A DNA stretch of 64,000 nucleotides from Dokdonella sp. (lineage in GTDB: Bacteria; Pseudomonadota; Gammaproteobacteria; Xanthomonadales; Rhodanobacteraceae). A program made the position numbers and the translations under genes. Below the pieces are notes generated by a model. The model had not been told where the DNA came from and did no database searches. It was given only the letters and a program-made list of their open reading frames with translations. Location of the stretch: assembly GCF_036518555.1 (NCBI RefSeq), contig NZ_DATDMY010000003.1, positions 2,626 through 66,625 of the forward strand, read 5' to 3'. Below, piece after piece: positions 11,888-19,770 of the stretch (the first letter of the stretch is position 1; each line of letters starts with the position of its first letter).

Positions 11888-12013
11888 TCAGCGCTGACGC
11901 GCCTTGAAACGCGGGTTGCTCTTGCAGATCACGAACACCTTGCCACGACGACGCACGACCTTGCAGTCGCGATGGCGCGCCTTGGCGGACTTGAGGGACG
12001 ACAGCACTTTCAT
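11888..12013 (-). CDS. rpmJ: 50S ribosomal protein L36, type B (zinc-independent, YkgO-like)
   Basis: [41 protein letters not shown] (41 aa). Confidence 0.95.
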
Positions 12014-12182: not shown

Positions 12183-12590
12183 TCAGTCGATCGAGAACGA
12201 CTGCAGGTCGACCGGGTTCGTGACGCTGATCGAGCCGACCATGCCCGACGCTTCGTGGGCTTCGCAATGGAACCCGATCGAGCCGTGCGCGGCGGCAGCG
12301 GTAATCGTGATCGTCGCATTCCACGAGGCGTTGCTGACATTGCCGTTGCCGCCGCTGCCGTCGCATCCGTTCGCGCAGCGGAACGAAAGCGGCGAGCCCG
12401 CGTCGGACGCGACGTTGTGGAAGCCACCGTCGTTGACGAACGTGACCGTATCGCCGACCAGCGCTTCGATGTTCGACGGCGTGAACACGAGGCCGGCGCC
12501 ACCGACGTGGATCGTATGGTCCATCGCGCATGCCGGACCTGCGGCGGTGGCGAGGACGGCCAGGACGAGCGACGAGAATGCGGTGCGCAT
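12183..12590 (-). CDS. Secreted plastocyanin/azurin-type blue copper protein (cupredoxin)
   Basis: Signal peptide; [15 protein letters not shown]; type-1 Cu ligands HNV and C-x2-H-x4-M (CEAHEASGM); C-terminal tail [10 protein letters not shown]. Confidence 0.85.
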
Positions 12591-12676
12591 GGGGGCAACT
12601 CCTTCAGTGAGTGGACGATGGACGGGTGTCGCGGTGCTGCGCGCGGGACCGCCGTGGCGCCGGCCCGCGGTCGCGC

Positions 12677-13372
12677 TCACGGCGCGCCGGCTTCGAGCCA
12701 GCGGCCGATCGCGTCGGCGGACGCGGCATCGAGGGTGCGCGCGATCGGAGCCATCACGTGCTGCGTGCTCGTGCGTGGCGCGGCGTCGCGGGCGAGGTCG
12801 GCCAGTCGGTTCGCGACGTACGGCGCGTGCTGGCCACGCAGCGCGGGATAGAGGCGCGCGTGCCCGTTGCGATCGACGTCGGTGCGGCCGCGCGCATCGG
12901 AGCCGTGACAACCCTGGCACGGAGGTATGCCACGCGCGGGATCGCCGTCGCGGTAGATCGTCGCGCCCGCCATCGTGGCGTCGTCCGTCGCATGCCCGGC
13001 CGCGGGCGGCAGGCTCGCGAAATAGGCCGCGAGGTCGCGCATCGCGACGTCGTCGAGGCTCGCCGCCTGCGCGGTCATCGGCGAATCGGGATCGACCCCG
13101 CGCTTGAACGCGACCAGGCGCCAATAGACGTACTGGGCGTTCTGGCCGGCGAGGTTCGGGAACGTCGGCACGAGCGCGACGCCCGCCGGGCCGTGGCAGG
13201 CGCTGCAGACGGTCGCCTTCGCCTTGCCCGCGGTCGCATCGCCGTGCACGCGCCCGACCGAACGCAGGTCGATGACGTCTCCGCTCGCGCAGGCGAGCGG
13301 GCAGCCGGCCAGCATGGCCGCGAACAGGATCCGGCGCAGGGTTTCGATCGCGGTCATGTCCGTCTCCGTCAC
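12677..13372 (-). CDS. Diheme cytochrome c4-type periplasmic cytochrome
   Basis: CSACH and CQGCH, each followed by P.L.GQ.A.Y and a distal Met. GTG 13372 overlaps the mtrB stop; alternative ATG at 13357. Confidence 0.9.
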   Translation of the reverse strand: MTETDMTAIETLRRILFAAMLAGCPLACASGDVIDLRSVGRVHGDATAGKAKATVCSACHGPAGVALVPTFPNLAGQNAQYVYWRLVAFKRGVDPDSPMTAQAASLDDVAMRDLAAYFASLPPAAGHATDDATMAGATIYRDGDPARGIPPCQGCHGSDARGRTDVDRNGHARLYPALRGQHAPYVANRLADLARDAAPRTSTQHVMAPIARTLDAASADAIGRWLEAGAP

Positions 13373-15927
13373 AGGCGGATGTCGAGCAGGATGCCGACGA
13401 GATGGGCGTCGTAGCCCTCGGGTCCGCCGTCGGTGTACACGCGGTGATCGAATGTGCGGGTCGCGCCGAAACCCAGGTAATGCCAGTCGCTGATGCGGCC
13501 GCGCTCGTACCTGTCGAATACGCGCAGCGCGATCCGCTCATGCAGCGGTACGCGCACGCCGATGCCGAGCGAATGGACCCGCCAGGTCATCGGCGGGAAC
13601 GCCCCCGAGCCTGGGCCGTCGCCGCTCACGGTGTCTGCCCAGGCGAGCGCGAGCGGCGATGCGAAGCGGTAGGCGGTCATGCCGCGCGCGTACAGGTAGT
13701 TCCAGCTCGCGTCGACTCGCACGCGGCCGAACGCATGCCCGATCATGGCGCCCGCGGTGTGGTTGCGTTGCGTGTCGTCGGCCCACCAGCGGCCGATGTC
13801 GGGGTAGGTGCCGCCGCCGAGGCGCGGGTCCGAGCCGCTGTCGAGGATCTCATTGATGTTGGCCAGGCGGAGCCGGGAGCGGTCGTAGGCGTAGTAGATG
13901 CTCGCATTGCTGCCGGGCGCGGGCTGCCATTCCCATTGCACGGTCGCCCCGAGCGTGTCGTAGCCGCGACGGCCGAGCACGGCGTCGTAGTCGTTGTCGT
14001 CGCCACGGAGCGAAGCCGTGATCGTCATGTCCTCGCGAGGCATGAAGGTCGCCATGAGGTCGAGCTTGTTCTCGCTGCGGCTCGCGACGTCGTACTTGCG
14101 CAGCGCATCGACGGTGTGGGCAGGCACGCCGTTCGGCGGAGCGATGAAGCCGGGCAGGTCGATCGAGTAGGTGAAATCGTACGGATCGTAGTCGTAGCGG
14201 TCGCCATCCTGGCGCAGCCAGGTGTAGTTCGCGCGCAAGGTCAGCCAGTCGAGCGCGCGGTTCGTCCAGGTCAGTTTCACGCTGCGGTCGTCGACGCTGC
14301 GGCGTTCGCGGTGCGTCGGTTCGTAGCGGCTGAACGCGAGCGTGGCGCCGAGCGTGTCGTGCGCGCCGGCCCTCCAGTCGGCACCGACGTTCGCCTCGGT
14401 CGTCTGCATGTCGAGCGGCAGGCTGCGCACGCGCGTGATCGCGGACGGGTCGGACGCGTCCCAGATGCCCGACTCGCCGGGCACGACGCTGCCTTGCGCA
14501 CCGTTCTCGCTGACGTAGCCGTACTGGCCGGTGAGCGGGTTGTAGGCGAGATAGACGCTGCGATAGTCCTCGCGCTCGTGGCGCACGCCGCCACGCACGG
14601 TGAGATCGGCGCCCGGCTGCAGCACCATGCGCGCGTCGAGCAGGCTCGTGTCGATGCGCATGTCGGCGGTGCGCCGCGACAGCGCCGCCGGCGTGTTCCA
14701 GTTCGCACAGTCGTACAGGAACGGGTTCTGCGGACCGGTCTGCAGGCTGCCGCCGAGGCCGATGCCGAACACGCCCTCGCATGCGATCGGGGCGATCAGC
14801 GTGTCGTCCTGCGTCATGCGGCCGCCGGAGGCGGTGAGCGAGAGTTCGCCGTTGAGCGGCAGCTTGCGCGTGAACGCGGCCTTGAGGTTGTGGTAGTCGT
14901 TGTCGGGCTCGGTCGCGAACTGGCCGGTCGTCAGCGGCGCCGATACCGCACCGGCGACGAGCGGACTCAGCGCGAACGGCATCGCGTAGGTGTAATGCGT
15001 GTAGCGGTCGCGGTAGAACGAGCCGCTGTAGCCGAAATCCATGCGCCAGACGTTGCCCGCATAACGGAAGCCGCCGTCGAGGTTGATCGTCGAATCGTCG
15101 ATCGGCTTGACCGTCTCGAGCACGCCGCCGTCGTCGGGGAACGGGAAGTTGAAGAAGAACGGGCCGCCGAACGGCCGGGCGCCGTGGCGCCGTTCGTCGG
15201 TCGCGTTCGCGTAGGCGGTCCATTGCGGCGTGAGGAAGACGCTGAAGCCGAGTCCCTGCTTCTCGCGCGTGACCCCGAGCGTGCGCGCGGGGGTCGCGGC
15301 CGACAGCGCCGAGATCGCGGCGGGCGAACTCGCGCCGGCGACGTAACCCGCGGGCAGCGTCAGGCGATCGGTACCGACGCCGTTCCAGATCGGCTTCGCC
15401 GTATTCGTGACGAGGTTCGGCATGGTGCGCAGGAATGCCTGCACCTTGTAGCTGCCGGCGCGCCCGAACACGGCCTGGTAGTACTCGTCGTCGTCGCTGA
15501 CGCGGCTCGCGCGCACGCTCGCGTAGCTGCCGTCGACGGGGCGTTCGGCATCGAACGCGAGCAGCGCGAGGACGATGCCGCTGTCCCAGTCGGCGTAGCG
15601 GTTCCACAGCGCGTTGTCGTCGTCGCCGCCCGTCGCGACGGCGCCGATGCTGAGCACGCCGGACGTTTGCCAGTTCCCGTGCGGGGTGACTGCAGGCGAC
15701 GGCGGCGGGCACGCGTAAAGGTGGCCGGTCGGGCTGCGGTGTACGCCGGCTTCCAGCCAGCTCGTGCCGCGATCGTCGCACCCGCCGATGGTCGCCCCCG
15801 CATTCGGGTCGAGTTCGTTCGCGCGCCAGGTATCGACGCCGACGCCGCTGTCGGCGTGTGCGTTGGCCGCGACGGCCGCGATCGCGACGGCGAGCGGCAG
15901 CCGGCGGAACAGGCGAGACGTGGACAT
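13369..15927 (-). CDS. mtrB: MtrB/PioB-family decaheme-associated outer-membrane beta-barrel
   Basis: 852 aa, signal peptide, alternating aromatic beta-strands, TVKPIDDST and EPDNDYH motifs; directly downstream of a decaheme cytochrome. Confidence 0.9.
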   Translation of the reverse strand: MSTSRLFRRLPLAVAIAAVAANAHADSGVGVDTWRANELDPNAGATIGGCDDRGTSWLEAGVHRSPTGHLYACPPPSPAVTPHGNWQTSGVLSIGAVATGGDDDNALWNRYADWDSGIVLALLAFDAERPVDGSYASVRASRVSDDDEYYQAVFGRAGSYKVQAFLRTMPNLVTNTAKPIWNGVGTDRLTLPAGYVAGASSPAAISALSAATPARTLGVTREKQGLGFSVFLTPQWTAYANATDERRHGARPFGGPFFFNFPFPDDGGVLETVKPIDDSTINLDGGFRYAGNVWRMDFGYSGSFYRDRYTHYTYAMPFALSPLVAGAVSAPLTTGQFATEPDNDYHNLKAAFTRKLPLNGELSLTASGGRMTQDDTLIAPIACEGVFGIGLGGSLQTGPQNPFLYDCANWNTPAALSRRTADMRIDTSLLDARMVLQPGADLTVRGGVRHEREDYRSVYLAYNPLTGQYGYVSENGAQGSVVPGESGIWDASDPSAITRVRSLPLDMQTTEANVGADWRAGAHDTLGATLAFSRYEPTHRERRSVDDRSVKLTWTNRALDWLTLRANYTWLRQDGDRYDYDPYDFTYSIDLPGFIAPPNGVPAHTVDALRKYDVASRSENKLDLMATFMPREDMTITASLRGDDNDYDAVLGRRGYDTLGATVQWEWQPAPGSNASIYYAYDRSRLRLANINEILDSGSDPRLGGGTYPDIGRWWADDTQRNHTAGAMIGHAFGRVRVDASWNYLYARGMTAYRFASPLALAWADTVSGDGPGSGAFPPMTWRVHSLGIGVRVPLHERIALRVFDRYERGRISDWHYLGFGATRTFDHRVYTDGGPEGYDAHLVGILLDIRL

Positions 15928-15939
15928 CGTTCCTCCGGC

Positions 15940-16992
15940 CTATTCGTGGAACTTCGGACCCGACGGCGCGTTCGAGCCGTGGATGTTCGCGTGGCATGTC
16001 ACGCATGCGCGCCCCATCGCGCGTTCGTCCGGATGCGCACCGTTGCCGAGCGAACCGGGCGTGTGCAGGTCGTTCGGATGGCGCAGGCCCGAATGGCATT
16101 GCTGGCACAGGAACGGCAGCGGCGTCACCAGCAACGTCTGCTGGTTGGACCCGTGCGGCGTATGGCAGTTGAGGCAGCTTTCGCGAACGGGCGCGTGCTC
16201 GAACAGGAACGGGCCGCGCTTGTCGGCGTGGCACTGGTAGCACGTCTCGTTGACGGTGTTCGTCTTGAGCAGCGGAGAGGTGATCGAGCCGTGCGGGTTG
16301 TGGCAGTCGTCGCAGCTCATCTGGCCTTCGGGCAACGGCATGTGCGAGCGCCGGTCGAACTGCAGTCGCACGTCGCGATGGCATTGGGCGCAGGTATCGT
16401 TGATCGACGCCTTCGCCATCAGGCCTTCGGCCGAGAACTTCGCCATCGGGTTGTGGCAGTCGCTGCAGGAGAGCCCGTTGCGCTGATGGACGGACCCGAG
16501 CCAGTGGTCGCGTGCGCCGCCCTCGTGGCAGGCGAGGCACGTCTTCGCCTGCGTCTCGATCGACGTGCCCGAATCCTTCGTGTAGCCGATGATGAGGCCC
16601 TTCGCGCCCGGATCCTTCGCGTGCGCCGATCCCGGGCCATGGCAGGTCTCGCAGACGGGGATCGACGCATCGGCCTTGTTCGCGGCGTGCAGGCCGAGTG
16701 CGTGGAAGGTGTGCGTGAAGTGCTCGCTCTCGAGCTGATGGCAGGCGATGCAGGTACGTTCGCCGACCGCAGTCGCCTCGTGGGCAGCGGGATTGTCCGC
16801 GACGCGTGCCTTCGCGAACCCCGGTGCGACGCCCGTCATGGCCGTGCCGGGCTGCACGTCGCTGCCGGCCAGGCCCGTCGACGGCAGCGATCTGGACAGT
16901 TCCTCGCGGGTCTGCTGCGCCAGCACCGGTGCGAGCATCGCGCACCCGAGCAGGAACGCGAGCACGGGTCGAAGCGCGTCAGTGCCTCGCAT
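15940..16992 (-). CDS. mtrA: Decaheme c-type cytochrome (DmsE/MtrA/PioA/MtoA family)
   Basis: Ten CxxCH counted: CIACH, CETCH, CLACH, CSDCH, CAQCH, CDDCH, CYQCH, CLNCH, CQQCH, CVTCH; KRGPFLFEHAPV and HGSN motifs; signal peptide. Confidence 0.95.
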   Translation of the reverse strand: MRGTDALRPVLAFLLGCAMLAPVLAQQTREELSRSLPSTGLAGSDVQPGTAMTGVAPGFAKARVADNPAAHEATAVGERTCIACHQLESEHFTHTFHALGLHAANKADASIPVCETCHGPGSAHAKDPGAKGLIIGYTKDSGTSIETQAKTCLACHEGGARDHWLGSVHQRNGLSCSDCHNPMAKFSAEGLMAKASINDTCAQCHRDVRLQFDRRSHMPLPEGQMSCDDCHNPHGSITSPLLKTNTVNETCYQCHADKRGPFLFEHAPVRESCLNCHTPHGSNQQTLLVTPLPFLCQQCHSGLRHPNDLHTPGSLGNGAHPDERAMGRACVTCHANIHGSNAPSGPKFHE

Positions 16993-18349
16993 GGGCAGGC
17001 CTCGTCGCCACGATGGTGGGGTCGCAGACTTCGTTCGTGCGCGCGAGCGTGCGTGCCGCCGCGCACGCGTCGATCGACGCGTCCGGACGGTGGCTCGTGC
17101 GGTCGAGCAAGGCGAACAGCGCCTTCGCGTCGAGTCGCGGGTCCAGTTCGAGCAGCAACGCGATCGCGCCGGTCACGTGCGCGGTCGCGAGCGAGCTGCC
17201 GGATGCGTAGTCGTAGTGCCCGCCGGGCTCGAGCGTGAGGATGTCGCGCCCGGGCGCGGCGAGCGTCGGCCGCGTCGTCGCGGGCGCATCACTGCTGCGC
17301 ACGCCGATCACCCCCGCGACGTCGACCGGGAAGCCGTCCGTGTTCCCGTCCGGAGGGACCGCGCCCACGACGATGACGCCGCGCTCCACCGCATTCGCGA
17401 GCAGCTGTTCGAGCAGCGGGTCGGACGGGCCGCCGAGGCTGAGGTTGATCACGCGGGCGCCGGAGGCGATCGCGTCGGCGAGTGCCTGCGCGAGCGTGAA
17501 CGTATCGCAGCGCGCGGCGCCGCCGTCCGCTTGCACGGGCCAGCATGCGCGCAGCGCGCGGATACGCGTGGCCGGCGCGACCCCGACGATGCCGACCCCG
17601 TTGTTCGCGACCGCGGCGATCACGCCGGCGACTTCGGTGCCATGGCGGTCGCGCGCGGCGGGCGCGGTCGCTGCGGTCGTGAAGTCGCGCTGCGCGACGA
17701 TGCGGCCGGCGAGGTCCGGGTGCGACGCGTCGATGCCGGCGTCGACGACCGCGACCTCGACCCGCGCGCCGCTCGCCCAACGCTGTGCGGCGGCGGCGCC
17801 GATACGGGAGAATCCCTGCTGCAAGCCGACATACGGATCGTTGTAACCGGACGCGTCGTGGCCCTCGGGGGCTGTGGCCGGCCCCATCGGGGCCGCTGCG
17901 TCGCCCGACTGCGCGTAGGTGCGGAATTCCTGCAGCGGCTGCGCCAGGCTCACGCGCCGGTCGCGGTGCAGGCGCGCGAGCGTGTCGTCGCGATCGATGC
18001 CTGCCGGGAGTTCGTAGAGCATGCAGCGCAGGCGAAGCGCCTGGATCGTCCACGCGGACACTTCGCGCAGCGAGTAGTCGCTCGCGATGCGACGCGCGAG
18101 CGCGCGCGTCCGTTCGCTGCCGCCCGCGTAATCGGGCAGGCCCGCGTAACCGCGCGGGGTCCCGGCGGCCTGTGCCGCGGGGTCGGCCCTGTCGGCGATC
18201 GCGACGACGATCATGCGCGGCGCGGCGGCGACGTCCGCGTCCGGCTGTTCGATCGCGCGCACCGGCGCCGGCGCGAGCGCACTCCCGCACGCGAACGCGA
18301 CGACCGCGCATCGCAGCGCATGGATCGAACCGCGGGTGCGCGCGCGCAT
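16979..18349 (-). CDS. Secreted S8 (subtilisin-family) serine peptidase
   Basis: Catalytic triad VVDAGID / HGTEVAG / SGSSLA; signal peptide; 3' end overlaps the mtrA start by 14 bp. Confidence 0.9.
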   Translation of the reverse strand: MRARTRGSIHALRCAVVAFACGSALAPAPVRAIEQPDADVAAAPRMIVVAIADRADPAAQAAGTPRGYAGLPDYAGGSERTRALARRIASDYSLREVSAWTIQALRLRCMLYELPAGIDRDDTLARLHRDRRVSLAQPLQEFRTYAQSGDAAAPMGPATAPEGHDASGYNDPYVGLQQGFSRIGAAAAQRWASGARVEVAVVDAGIDASHPDLAGRIVAQRDFTTAATAPAARDRHGTEVAGVIAAVANNGVGIVGVAPATRIRALRACWPVQADGGAARCDTFTLAQALADAIASGARVINLSLGGPSDPLLEQLLANAVERGVIVVGAVPPDGNTDGFPVDVAGVIGVRSSDAPATTRPTLAAPGRDILTLEPGGHYDYASGSSLATAHVTGAIALLLELDPRLDAKALFALLDRTSHRPDASIDACAAARTLARTNEVCDPTIVATRPAHARH

Positions 18350-18356
18350 CGTGCGG

Positions 18357-18986
18357 TCACCTGTCCGAGGCATTCGCGATCGGTTCGACGAGCAGCACTC
18401 CCGGCGCCGCGCGCAACCGTGCGACGACGTCCGGATCGGCGCGCCCCGGCGCGACCGGCGCGAGCGTGTAGATGGTGCCGCCGTCGTTCGTGCCGACGAT
18501 GCGCAGGCCCCGCTCACCGAGCAGACGCTGCAGTTGGCCGACGCTGAGTTCGGGCGACGGAACGAAGCGAAGGCTCGCGCGCGCGGGCAGCGTTTCGGGA
18601 GCGCTCAGCGTACGGTAGGCGGGTGCATCGTCGGCGCGATGGCGCTCGATCGCCCACGTCGCGAGCGCGACGAGTCCGATCGCCTGGATCGCGACCGTGG
18701 CGGCGAGTGCGCGCAGCAGGTGCCGCGGTCGCGCGGGGCCGGCGTCGATCGCCTGTTCGGCGTCGATGCGTGCGAGAAGCCGATCGAACGCGGGCCGCAC
18801 CTCGCCGACGACGCGGGTGTCGACGTCGAGTCCCGCATGCACGCGCGACTGGAACGCGTATTCGTCGCGGCAGTCCGTGCACGCGGCAAGGTGTGCTTCC
18901 GCGAGCGAGCGGTCGGCAGCGGAGGCGGTGCCGTTGATGAGCCACGGGATGAGGTCCCAGGTCCGGCGATGCTGTGGAGACGGCAT
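18357..18986 (-). CDS. Zinc-binding (zf-HC2/ZAS) transmembrane anti-sigma factor
   Basis: H...LIPWLING...HLAACTDC motif, one TM segment, small C-terminal extracytoplasmic domain; 2 bp after the sigma stop. Confidence 0.85.
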   Translation of the reverse strand: MPSPQHRRTWDLIPWLINGTASAADRSLAEAHLAACTDCRDEYAFQSRVHAGLDVDTRVVGEVRPAFDRLLARIDAEQAIDAGPARPRHLLRALAATVAIQAIGLVALATWAIERHRADDAPAYRTLSAPETLPARASLRFVPSPELSVGQLQRLLGERGLRIVGTNDGGTIYTLAPVAPGRADPDVVARLRAAPGVLLVEPIANASDR

Positions 18987-18988
18987 GG

Positions 18989-19606
18989 TCAAGCCCGTGC
19001 GATATGGGAGGGGAGTGGAGCGTCGCCGCCGAGTGCGGGCAGGGTGTTGCGCAGGCGCAGGCGCGCATGGAACATGCGCGCCTTCACCGTGCCGACCGCG
19101 CAGTTCATGATCGCGGCGATTTCCTCGCACGACTGGCCGAGGAAGTACGCGAGCTCGATCGTCATGCGTTGCTCGTCGGGGAGCAGCGCGAGGCCGTGCC
19201 GCAACCAGTCGCGCAATTCGGCCTGGCGCGCGTCGGACTCGTCGGGCGCCGGATCGTGCAGCGCCTCCTGGTCGCGCTCGCCGGCGCCGTACGTCGGCTC
19301 GAGCGGGTGATCGCGCAGATGCTTCATGAGACAGCGGTAGGCGATGCCGATGATCCACGTCCGCACCTTCGACTCGCCGCGGAAGCTGCCCGCGGTGCGC
19401 CAGACGACCCAGAGCGTCTCGTTGACCATCTCCTCGATGACGTCGCGGCGGGCGGTGAAGCGCGAGAGGAAACGCGAAAGCAGGCCGTGGTAGCGCCGAT
19501 ACAGCTGCTCGAACGCGGCGCGATCCTGGCGCGCGATCGCGCGCAGCCAATCGAGCTCCGTCGCGGAACCCGAGGCAGGGTCGTCGTCTGTCCTTGTCTG
19601 TTCCAC
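18989..19606 (-). CDS. ECF RNA polymerase sigma factor
   Basis: DRAAFEQLYRRY, VWRTAGSFRGESKVRTWI, SCEEIAAIMNCAVGTVKARMFHAR; GTG start chosen because GGAG lies upstream. Confidence 0.9.
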   Translation of the reverse strand: MEQTRTDDDPASGSATELDWLRAIARQDRAAFEQLYRRYHGLLSRFLSRFTARRDVIEEMVNETLWVVWRTAGSFRGESKVRTWIIGIAYRCLMKHLRDHPLEPTYGAGERDQEALHDPAPDESDARQAELRDWLRHGLALLPDEQRMTIELAYFLGQSCEEIAAIMNCAVGTVKARMFHARLRLRNTLPALGGDAPLPSHIARA

Positions 19607-19770
19607 GCGATCCAGGCTCCGCCGGTGGCCGTACTCGATCGTGGGTACCCGCTGCGTGCCAAAAGGTTGCGCCACGAGCCGTCCAGGTGCAATGGTGGCG
19701 GCCGCCGATGGACCACGGACGCGATCGGAGGGTTGGATCGCAGGCCGCCACTGCCCGGGAGTGACAGCGC

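Follow-up and report, generated by a model that had tools for sequence, protein, structure and literature searches.

The mtrA-mtrB-c4-cupredoxin locus and its putative operon

The window, i.e. the whole stretch of 64,000 nucleotides of the soil bacterium Dokdonella sp. that was analysed, carries four co-directional genes on the minus strand, encoding a decaheme cytochrome (MtrA), an outer-membrane barrel (MtrB), a diheme cytochrome c4 and a type-1 cupredoxin, at the coordinates already assigned to them in the first-pass annotation. Together with the upstream features, they are as follows, in the order of transcription:

19642..19670, minus strand: ECF-type promoter motif ahead of the sigma gene, GCAACCTTT-N12-GGGTAC, based on recurrence of the motif at the loci of relatives
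18989..19606, minus strand: ECF sigma factor, 205 aa, with Sigma70_r2, Sigma70_r4_2 and Sigma70_ECF domains
18357..18986, minus strand: zinc-binding anti-sigma factor (ZAS), membrane-spanning, 209 aa, with a zf-HC2 domain
16979..18349, minus strand: secreted S8 subtilase, Peptidase_S8 at 109.8 bits, signal peptide
15940..16992, minus strand: periplasmic decaheme cytochrome of the MtrA/MtoA type, 350 aa, signal peptide, 10 CxxCH, TIGR03508
13369..15927, minus strand: outer-membrane barrel of the MtrB/PioB type, 852 aa, PF11854
12677..13372, minus strand: diheme cytochrome c4, 2 CxxCH, probable start at ATG 13357
12183..12590, minus strand: type-1 cupredoxin, plastocyanin-like, 135 aa, PF00127

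The 12-bp gap between mtrA and mtrB and the 86-bp gap between c4 and the cupredoxin gene, both reported previously, are correct. The reported 4-bp overlap between mtrB and c4 requires a GTG start at 13372; the ATG at 13357 is more likely, since it has a GGAG ribosome-binding site and agrees with the starts of the orthologues, and it leaves an 11-bp gap instead. Further upstream, the stop of the S8 subtilase gene and the start of mtrA overlap by 14 bp. The four-gene arrangement of the first-pass annotation is right as far as it goes, being the distal part of a putative seven-gene operon (ECF sigma, ZAS anti-sigma, S8 protease, mtrA, mtrB, c4, cupredoxin) of which the ECF sigma factor at the head had been overlooked. 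A scan of the operon for sigma-70 promoters and terminators gave nothing informative, and no terminator was predicted in the 86-bp gap between c4 and the cupredoxin gene.

The sigma factor scores 80.8 bits against TIGR02937 (cut-off 42.9). The anti-sigma factor contains an H-x3-C-x2-C sequence and crosses the membrane once, with about 95 aa forming its periplasmic domain. The GCAACCTTT-N12-GGGTAC motif is also present upstream of the sigma orthologues in four related loci (L014, L055, L059 and L081), and in two of these, L055 and L059, where the cassette lies downstream of the module, the same motif precedes mtrA. In total, the sigma/anti-sigma/S8 cassette is linked to the module, either upstream or downstream, in 12 loci. 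ECF control is not universal, since LysR or TetR regulators accompany the module instead in other clades. Regulation by an ECF sigma and a ZAS anti-sigma factor is commoner in stress responses than in core energy metabolism. Neighbours of the zinc-limitation-regulon type were also seen: related loci contain FolE2, and Dokdonella sp. has a Cys-less paralogue of L36.

The identities previously given to the four distal genes are borne out by profile matches and by structurally solved relatives. With its 10 CxxCH motifs, the decaheme scores 252 bits against TIGR03508 (DmsE family, cut-off 192), so that the profile placement proposed in the first-pass annotation assigns it, at family level, to the DmsE/MtrA family. 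It is about 40% identical to MtrA of S. baltica (6r2q_A), with seven non-motif histidines being invariant. The barrel, encoded directly beside mtrA, matches 6r2q_B and reaches 293.6 bits against PF11854 (MtrB_PioB, cut-off 23); against the stricter NCBIfam model TIGR03509 it scores 216.9 bits, slightly below the cut-off of 240.05. Other MtrAB clusters occur within the order, their decahemes being 36-41% identical to the MtrA described here; one of them (L024) is mto-like, consisting of a cymA-like gene, a one-haem gene, mtrA and mtrB. Since MtoA and PioA do not group by function in trees (PMC8805035), decaheme phylogeny was dropped as a guide to which way the electrons flow.

For the c4, the best solved relatives are the Pseudomonas cytochromes c4 6q2u (E 2e-28) and 1etp (E 2e-24), and the search of solved structures returned c4/c55x-type chains only. 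All 11 aligned sequences share the haem-binding residues, C56/C59/H60 with M99 for one haem and C152/C155/H156 with M207 for the other, and the Dokdonella sp. copy carries a lipobox (LAGC). Membership of the PdsA family (NF049874) was considered and rejected, at 24.2 bits against a cut-off of 330.

In the cupredoxin, His58, Cys109, His112 and Met117 align with the copper ligands of plastocyanin, as expected of a type-1 copper site. Its AlphaFold2 model (pLDDT 88.8) superimposes on plastocyanins with Foldseek TM scores of 0.74-0.81. The comparison with rusticyanin made in the first-pass annotation does not hold, the protein being plastocyanin/pseudoazurin-like with a C-x2-H-x4-M spacing. It stays below the equivalog cut-offs for both plastocyanin (TIGR02656, 41 bits against 87.85) and pseudoazurin (TIGR02375, 34 against 109.85), and represents a distinct, lineage-restricted subfamily. 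A C-terminal tail, (D/E)LQSFx(I/V)(D/E), which is unstructured in the model, forms the end of 85 of the 120 cupredoxin homologues. The gene has a ribosome-binding site of its own, GAAGGAG. Five cupredoxin paralogues are encoded elsewhere in the genome, none of them on a NirK contig, and cupredoxin paralogues are fused to larger secreted domains.

Conservation of the module and its carriers

A synteny search, proposed at the outset for the whole four-gene arrangement, revealed that mtrA-mtrB-c4 is conserved over about 50 loci while the cupredoxin varies. Since it recurs in about 50 independent loci, the arrangement is not due to chance. Carriers were found in Dokdonella, Rhodanobacter, Frateuria, Dyella, Stenotrophomonas, Pseudoxanthomonas, Luteimonas and Steroidobacteraceae. 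Instead of being peculiar to this organism, the system is a conserved module present in approximately 22% of the genera sampled in the order.

Counting only loci with enough upstream DNA, all c4 orthologues of at least about 40% identity lie directly after mtrA-mtrB (about 50 loci). Cytochromes c4 of 36-39% identity, from Pseudomonas and others, are not located behind mtrA-mtrB, and the linked c4s form a single clade apart from the unlinked ones (SH-aLRT 99). At L023 and L079, tandem duplications have copied mtrA, mtrB and c4 together. Because it always follows mtrA-mtrB, falls in one clade and is duplicated along with both genes, the linked c4 is, as judged from sequence, the predicted dedicated partner of MtrAB.

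The cupredoxin is an accessory and not, as the first-pass annotation had it, a core part, since most loci have none after c4. A plastocyanin-like cupredoxin follows c4 in 11 named loci and in loci of the genus, this form being the one of the Dokdonella clade. In seven loci of a Stenotrophomonas/Pseudoxanthomonas clade, the slot after c4 is filled by an unrelated azurin, and at L066 the cupredoxin is flanked by mtrB and c4. Two cupredoxin families have been recruited independently into the slot after c4. No further small redox gene was consistently found beside the module in the Rhodanobacter/Frateuria clade.

Part of this distribution has been noted before. MtoAB-like genes were reported in Rhodanobacter from Fe(II)-oxidising enrichments, and it was proposed that this genus, which has MtoAB-like proteins, oxidises Fe(II) mixotrophically (PMC11366258, PMC12622760), so the statement that such a phenotype is uncharacterised in Xanthomonadales needs amending. 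An isolated Rhodanobacter of culture KS was reportedly unable to oxidise Fe(II) alone (PMC11366258). A literature search combining Dokdonella and MtoA retrieved no paper linking the two. The genus has, to our knowledge, no reported Fe(II)-oxidising phenotype.

Redox partners in the genome and direction of electron flow

Profile searches extend the earlier observation that the window holds neither MtrC nor CymA to the whole, 98% complete genome. No protein scored above the cut-off of TIGR03507 (MtrC/OmcA) in Dokdonella sp. or in 40 relatives, and no MtrC-sized multihaem gene adjoins mtrAB in 14 loci. With the NapC/NirT profile PF03264, the sole match in the genome is MtrA itself, whereas control genomes including E. 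coli do match; an open reading frame with four CxxCH motifs is absent from the genome as well. MenD and MqnA of the menaquinone pathway were not found in the genome, nor was RuBisCO, the latter in agreement with the apparently heterotrophic lifestyle suggested earlier. Hence, none of the hallmarks of the MtrCAB metal-reducing pathway (an outer decaheme MtrC/OmcA, a CymA/NapC-type quinol dehydrogenase and menaquinone) is present. What is present is the gene content of MtoAB/PioAB systems, MtrAB without MtrC and with a small periplasmic carrier. The carrier itself differs in kind, being a c4 with an optional cupredoxin. The earlier comparison with MtoAB/PioAB and high-potential carriers is therefore apt.

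As electron sinks, the genome encodes an aa3-type oxidase, two cbb3 oxidases and NirK. It also encodes a separate Cyc2-like fused cytochrome-porin followed by a Cyc1-like c4, whose best solved match is the A. ferrooxidans c4 1H1O; this pair repeats the design of an outer-membrane conduit with a c4. A secreted nine-haem protein with a Big_9 domain, encoded on another contig, was considered as an MtrC analogue and rejected. It is isolated, and it does not co-occur with the module, since only 2 of 40 relatives have a full-length copy and MtrB was found in 20 of the 24 genomes of the genus Dokdonella.

Class I haems with His/Met ligation are of the high-potential type, and both the c4 and the cupredoxin are probably high-potential carriers. 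The best reading of the locus, which we hold with slightly more confidence than doubt, is an MtoAB/PioAB-like conduit for inward electron uptake that feeds high-potential carriers. The inward direction is favoured because of the dedicated c4 clade, the two independent cupredoxin recruitments, the lack of menaquinone and the His/Met haem ligation; we infer the direction, the donors and the acceptors alike from gene content. Extracellular reductants such as Fe(II), Fe(II) minerals, reduced humic substances or a cathode would be oxidised at the cell surface, and MtrA threaded through the MtrB barrel would act as an MtrC-less electron wire over the outer membrane. On the periplasmic side, MtrA would pass the electrons to its dedicated His/Met diheme c4, with the plastocyanin-like blue copper protein as an additional carrier in the Dokdonella lineage. 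The c4 and the cupredoxin would in turn deliver them to a terminal oxidase, cbb3 or aa3, or else to NirK. For a heterotroph, the benefit might be extra proton-motive force (lithoheterotrophy), the confinement of Fe(II) oxidation to the outside of the cell, or both.

The same proteins could also run outward, from the bc1 complex through c4 and cupredoxin to MtrAB and on to high-potential extracellular acceptors such as Mn(III/IV) oxides, chelated Fe(III), or oxidised phenazines or humics, as an overflow when O2 is limiting. Conduits of the MtrCAB and MtrAB types can conduct both ways (PMC8805035), Aeromonas uses a c4-like diheme shuttle for outward transfer (although the PdsA match here is weak, at 24 bits), a heterotroph has reducing power to shed and a secreted nine-haem protein is encoded elsewhere in the genome. 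However, this protein is full length in just 2 of the 40 relatives, MtrC/OmcA, a CymA/NapC-type quinol dehydrogenase and menaquinone are all missing, and electrons would have to travel uphill from a His/Met c4 and a type-1 copper protein to the bis-His haems of MtrA, which makes outward flow rather unlikely. The operon might instead be an envelope-stress or detoxification device, in which the ECF sigma factor responds to a redox or metal signal and the conduit, possibly still working inward, oxidises harmful Fe(II) extracellularly or balances the periplasmic redox state with no growth benefit. The ECF sigma, membrane ZAS anti-sigma and S8 protease at the operon head point this way, as do the ECF-type promoter motif before mtrA in L055 and L059 and the neighbours of the zinc-limitation type (FolE2 in related loci and the Cys-less L36 paralogue here). 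Given that the module is paired with LysR or TetR in other clades, and that delivery to proton-pumping oxidases conserves energy regardless of the trigger, we regard such a device as improbable.

Two further alternatives concern the cupredoxin. With c4 as the true partner of MtrAB, the cupredoxin could be a mere neighbour serving other enzymes, e.g. NirK, the classical partner of pseudoazurin-type proteins. Its absence after c4 in most loci, the 86-bp gap, its own ribosome-binding site and the coexistence of five paralogues with NirK in the genome are consistent with this. We nevertheless give it only a small share of our confidence, for two unrelated families hold the same position in two clades, L066 has the order mtrB, cupredoxin, c4, no terminator is predicted in the gap and no paralogue lies on a NirK contig. 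Alternatively, the cupredoxin might sit at the cell surface as a copper-based stand-in for MtrC on the outer side of MtrAB, its conserved tail serving as a sorting or docking signal. The tail does end 85 of the 120 homologues and is unstructured in the model, and paralogues are fused to larger secreted domains. But the slot in the sister clade is taken by azurin, a classical periplasmic protein lacking the tail, tails of this kind have no known secretion pathway and a periplasmic role is more economical, so a surface location is very improbable.

Inward uptake thus being the preferred reading, a broader proposal can be put forward more tentatively, and with rather less than even confidence. 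The mtrA-mtrB-c4 genes, joined on at least two independent occasions by a blue copper protein, may constitute a widespread uptake module, ECF-driven in the Dokdonella-type lineage. By means of it, ordinary soil and water heterotrophs, aerobic or denitrifying (among them Dokdonella, Rhodanobacter, Stenotrophomonas and Luteimonas), might harvest electrons from Fe(II) minerals and reduced humics straight to their cbb3/aa3 oxidases. If the flow is inward, the ability to oxidise extracellular Fe(II), humics or cathodes would have been overlooked in about one fifth of the genera of a very common soil order. This would matter for the cycling of iron, for consortia performing nitrate-dependent Fe(II) oxidation and for biocathodes. 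Such uptake would also be a form of lithoheterotrophy so far undemonstrated in the order, with c4 as the defined periplasmic link between conduit and oxidase. Since the module occurs in culturable organisms, some of them fast-growing (Stenotrophomonas, Rhodanobacter, Dokdonella), the question can be tested by ordinary genetics and electrochemistry.

Comparison with known systems

With Shewanella MtrCAB/CymA, the locus shares an MtrA of about 40% identity and the same MtrB family. Unlike Shewanella, Dokdonella has no MtrC/OmcA, CymA or menaquinone, and its carriers are of the high-potential type, whereas those of Shewanella (STC and FccA) are low-potential. The PdsA/NetBCD-MtrCAB system of Aeromonas hydrophila likewise pairs a periplasmic diheme c-type shuttle with an Mtr conduit, but it includes MtrC and runs outward from a quinol dehydrogenase that is absent from the Dokdonella genome.

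The rus operon of Acidithiobacillus ferrooxidans (Cyc2, the c4 Cyc1, rusticyanin and an aa3 oxidase) has the same succession of outer-membrane entry, diheme c4 and cupredoxin leading to an oxidase. In Dokdonella, however, the outer-membrane part is MtrAB rather than Cyc2, the cupredoxin has plastocyanin-type and not rusticyanin-type spacing, the cluster contains no oxidase genes and it belongs to a neutrophilic heterotroph. PioABC of Rhodopseudomonas palustris TIE-1, for which inward electron flow has been demonstrated genetically, also combines an MtrC-less conduit with a small high-potential periplasmic carrier encoded by the last gene of the operon (PMC6831781; PMC5566968). Its carrier PioC is, unlike c4 or the cupredoxin, a HiPIP iron-sulfur protein feeding the photosynthetic reaction centre, and PioA has a long N-terminal extension, whereas the Dokdonella decaheme is MtrA-sized (350 aa).

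MtoAB with MtoD, known from Sideroxydans lithotrophicus ES-1 and as mtoABD from Thiomonas FB-6 and FB-Cd, shares the MtrC-less decaheme and MtrB-type barrel together with a periplasmic class I cytochrome; like PioABC, it is a precedent for the arrangement described here, and the three-gene Thiomonas cluster and that of Dokdonella are both without an inner-membrane redox gene (PMC5566968). The Dokdonella carrier is a diheme His/Met c4, in contrast to the monohaem MtoD, and the cupredoxin, the ECF sigma regulation and a heterotrophic host without RuBisCO are additional differences. According to a 2026 preprint, the periplasmic chain of neutrophilic Fe(II) oxidation is unknown (10.64898/2026.01.22.701106). 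For this acknowledged gap, the route from an MtoA-type conduit to a terminal oxidase, the module offers a candidate carrier in the form of a c4 subfamily occurring only after mtrAB, with an optional cupredoxin.

The mtr operon and its predicted control

The source genome (draft of 4.04 Mb, 98% complete, in which the window is C3:2626-66625 with a G+C content of ~70%) is near D. fugitiva, with 88% identity in MtrA and a neighbourhood that is fully syntenic in NZ_SLWQ01000005. The four genes reported in the first-pass annotation (decaheme cytochrome, barrel, cytochrome c4 and blue copper protein) are all present, but the operon is larger, with three further genes directly upstream on the same strand.

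Features of the operon, with window coordinates and strand
19642-19670 (-): ECF-type promoter motif GCAACCTTT-N12/13-G(G/C)(G/C)(T/C)AC, 5' of the sigma gene
18989-19606 (-): ECF sigma factor, upstream of the module
18357-18986 (-): ZAS anti-sigma factor, membrane-spanning, with an H-x3-C-x2-C motif and one transmembrane segment
16979-18349 (-): secreted S8 subtilase, its stop overlapping the mtrA start
15940-16992 (-): MtrA-type decaheme cytochrome, 350 aa, with signal peptide and 10 CxxCH (TIGR03508 DmsE family, 252 bits)
13369-15927 (-): MtrB/PioB barrel, 852 aa (PF11854, 293.6 bits)
12677-13372 (-): diheme cytochrome c4, solved relatives being c4 structures
12183-12590 (-): cupredoxin, 135 aa, solved relatives being plastocyanins and pseudoazurins

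No terminator is predicted inside this seven-gene string. The solved relatives of the conduit are S. baltica MtrA and MtrB (6r2q), those of c4 are the Pseudomonas c4 (6q2u, 1etp) and the A. ferrooxidans c4 (1h1o). The spacings given earlier (12-bp gap, 4-bp overlap and 86-bp gap) hold, except that translation of c4 more probably begins at ATG 13357 than at the overlapping GTG, since this ATG has a GGAG ribosome-binding site and agrees with the orthologue start. A lipobox (LAGC) in the c4 signal peptide (window 13300-13372, -) is present here and in some orthologues and absent from others, so membrane anchoring of c4 varies.

The ECF-type motif also precedes the sigma gene in four orthologous loci. 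In two loci of other genomes, L055 and L059, the cassette of sigma factor, anti-sigma factor and protease lies downstream of the module, and the motif is found ahead of mtrA too, with a second copy in opposite orientation (motif positions 2213 and 7560 in L055, 1969 and 7815 in L059). A motif common to the sigma gene and mtrA suggests that the ECF sigma factor controls mtrAB-c4 directly.

The cupredoxin gene is followed by a Cys-less (YkgO-type) L36 paralogue (window 11888-12013, -), and in the related loci L069, L077, L078, L082 and L083 a FolE2 gene separates the S8 protease gene from mtrA. The two are characteristic members of the zinc-limitation (Zur) regulon. Their position near a zinc-binding anti-sigma factor may be a coincidence or a link to zinc.

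Conservation of the module and its cupredoxins

MtrB was found in 20 of the 24 genus genomes, with c4 directly 3' of mtrA-mtrB at every genus locus examined. Using an alignment of c4 as query and one genome per species, 79 loci were retrieved. All c4s at or above ~40% identity whose loci extend far enough upstream (~50) directly follow mtrA-mtrB; those of 36-39% identity (Pseudomonas and others) do not. The linked c4s form a single clade (support 99), outside which fall the unlinked ones, including the housekeeping c4 and the Cyc1-like c4 of the Dokdonella genome. Two haem motifs and two axial Met are invariant in the c4 alignment, and tandem duplication of mtrA-mtrB-c4 as one unit is seen in two loci, L023 and L079. 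A genuine functional unit of mtrA-mtrB-c4 is well supported and very probable.

Carriers include D. fugitiva, D. ginsengisoli, Rhodanobacter soli, R. glycinis, R. panaciterrae, Frateuria, Dyella koreensis, Stenotrophomonas capsici, S. acidaminiphila, S. nitritireducens, Pseudoxanthomonas, Luteimonas and Rudaea, as well as metagenome-assembled genomes of Steroidobacteraceae and Chromatiaceae. Across an even sampling of the order, 30/296 high-quality genomes and 18/83 genera have an MtrB of this clade. The two adjacent module copies in L023 (G003:C57) and L079 have diverged, their MtrB copies being 59% and 45% identical to the window protein.

The cupredoxin has its four copper ligands (H58, C109, H112, M117) all aligned with those of solved relatives, and its AlphaFold2 model (pLDDT 88.8) superposes on plastocyanins with a TM of 0.74-0.81. 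A plastocyanin-like gene follows c4 in 11 named loci and several genus loci, all of them placed by the MtrB tree in its Dokdonella-type clade; in one locus, L066, the cupredoxin gene lies between mtrB and c4. Stenotrophomonas, Pseudoxanthomonas and Lysobacter contribute seven loci in which c4 is followed instead by a true azurin (155 bits to 1aiz). At the S. capsici locus (L035, 3-10602), the whole set tetR-mtrA-mtrB-c4-azurin interrupts the cytochrome c maturation operon, inserted after ccmB and before ccmC. The Rhodanobacter/Frateuria/Dyella clade has a divergent LysR regulator and no adjacent cupredoxin. The cupredoxin is accessory to the module, yet not accidental: two unrelated families in the same slot in two clades argue for a probable functional link, and it is unlikely to be a mere neighbour.

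The Dokdonella cupredoxin subfamily is narrow (148 matches in the homologue search), scores under the cut-offs of both the curated plastocyanin and pseudoazurin models, and is marked by a conserved F-R-C-A-N-G-C-D-G loop (CxxxC). The conserved tail (D/E)LQSFx(I/V)(D/E) (window 12183-12215, -), unstructured in the model, is found at the very C-terminus of 85 of 120 homologues and of a paralogue on contig C93. Five paralogues of the plastocyanin-like cupredoxin are encoded in the genome (contigs C285, C92, C63, C93 and C132), three of them fused to larger C-terminal domains. Several secreted proteins (C77, C285, C245 and the repeat protein C77:14089-16467) have ...(I/L)F(A/E)NGFDG(A) as their C-terminal end or close to it, which may be a lineage-specific C-terminal motif.

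Electron flow and comparison with known systems

MtrC/OmcA (TIGR03507) was found neither in the Dokdonella genome nor in 40 relatives. The NapC/NirT (CymA-like) search, with E. coli among the matching controls, matched only MtrA itself in the genome, which has no open reading frame with four CxxCH motifs, no menaquinone pathway (MenD, MqnA) and no RuBisCO. It encodes one aa3-type and two cbb3 terminal oxidases as well as NirK. A nine-haem protein that is secreted and carries an Ig-like (Big_9/cadherin-like) domain (C77:18587-20551, +) was rejected as an obligate partner because it is full-length in only 2/40 relatives. Two paralogous five-haem proteins of ~630-680 aa (C111:2268-4340, -; C245:33132-35828, +) have no Pfam or NCBIfam match.

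Outside the window, a cyc2-cyc1-like pair was identified:
C209:637-3222 (-): Cyc2-like fused monohaem cytochrome-porin (464 aa), then a diheme c4

The Cyc2-like protein has a signal peptide and one CVACH motif, after which comes PEL; its barrel is modelled with 16 strands, and it belongs to no Pfam or NCBIfam family. The best solved match of the c4 immediately after it is the A. ferrooxidans c4 1H1O. This pair is a second 'outer-membrane conduit plus c4' unit in the genome; a Cyc2-type unit is an accepted marker of Fe(II) oxidation.

Inward flow, as proposed in the first-pass annotation, here with the oxidases or NirK as the destination, is favoured at slightly better than even chances, because of the carriers, the bis-His MtrA, the missing outward parts and the closest architectures. 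A high potential is the rule for carriers such as a His/Met c4 and a type-1 copper protein. The haems of MtrA have bis-His ligation (7 further His residues are invariant), and outward respiration would lack a quinol dehydrogenase, a low-potential quinone and MtrC. A surface-exposed cupredoxin could take the place of the missing MtrC, which we consider very improbable. The conduit is reversible and function-specific clades do not exist (PMC8805035), which counts against the inferred direction; one Rhodanobacter isolated from the Fe(II)-oxidising culture KS reportedly did not oxidise Fe(II) alone (PMC11366258), also counter-evidence to inward flow. Outward flow to high-potential acceptors seems doubtful, and an ECF-controlled role in stress or detoxification somewhat more so. 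All these readings, inward flow and those on the cupredoxin included, overlap and are not mutually exclusive.

In the literature, no prior description was found of a dedicated c4 subfamily, repeated cupredoxin recruitment or a shared ECF-type promoter, nor anything on such a system in Dokdonella. Extracellular electron-transfer genes were previously noted in non-autotrophic Xanthomonadaceae (PMC7767972), and earlier work on culture KS connects the MtoAB-like and Cyc2-like genes of Rhodanobacter with mixotrophic Fe(II) oxidation (PMC11366258, PMC12622760). The closest architectures to the mtrA-mtrB-c4 module are Thiomonas mtoABD and PioABC, both electron-uptake systems (PMC5566968).
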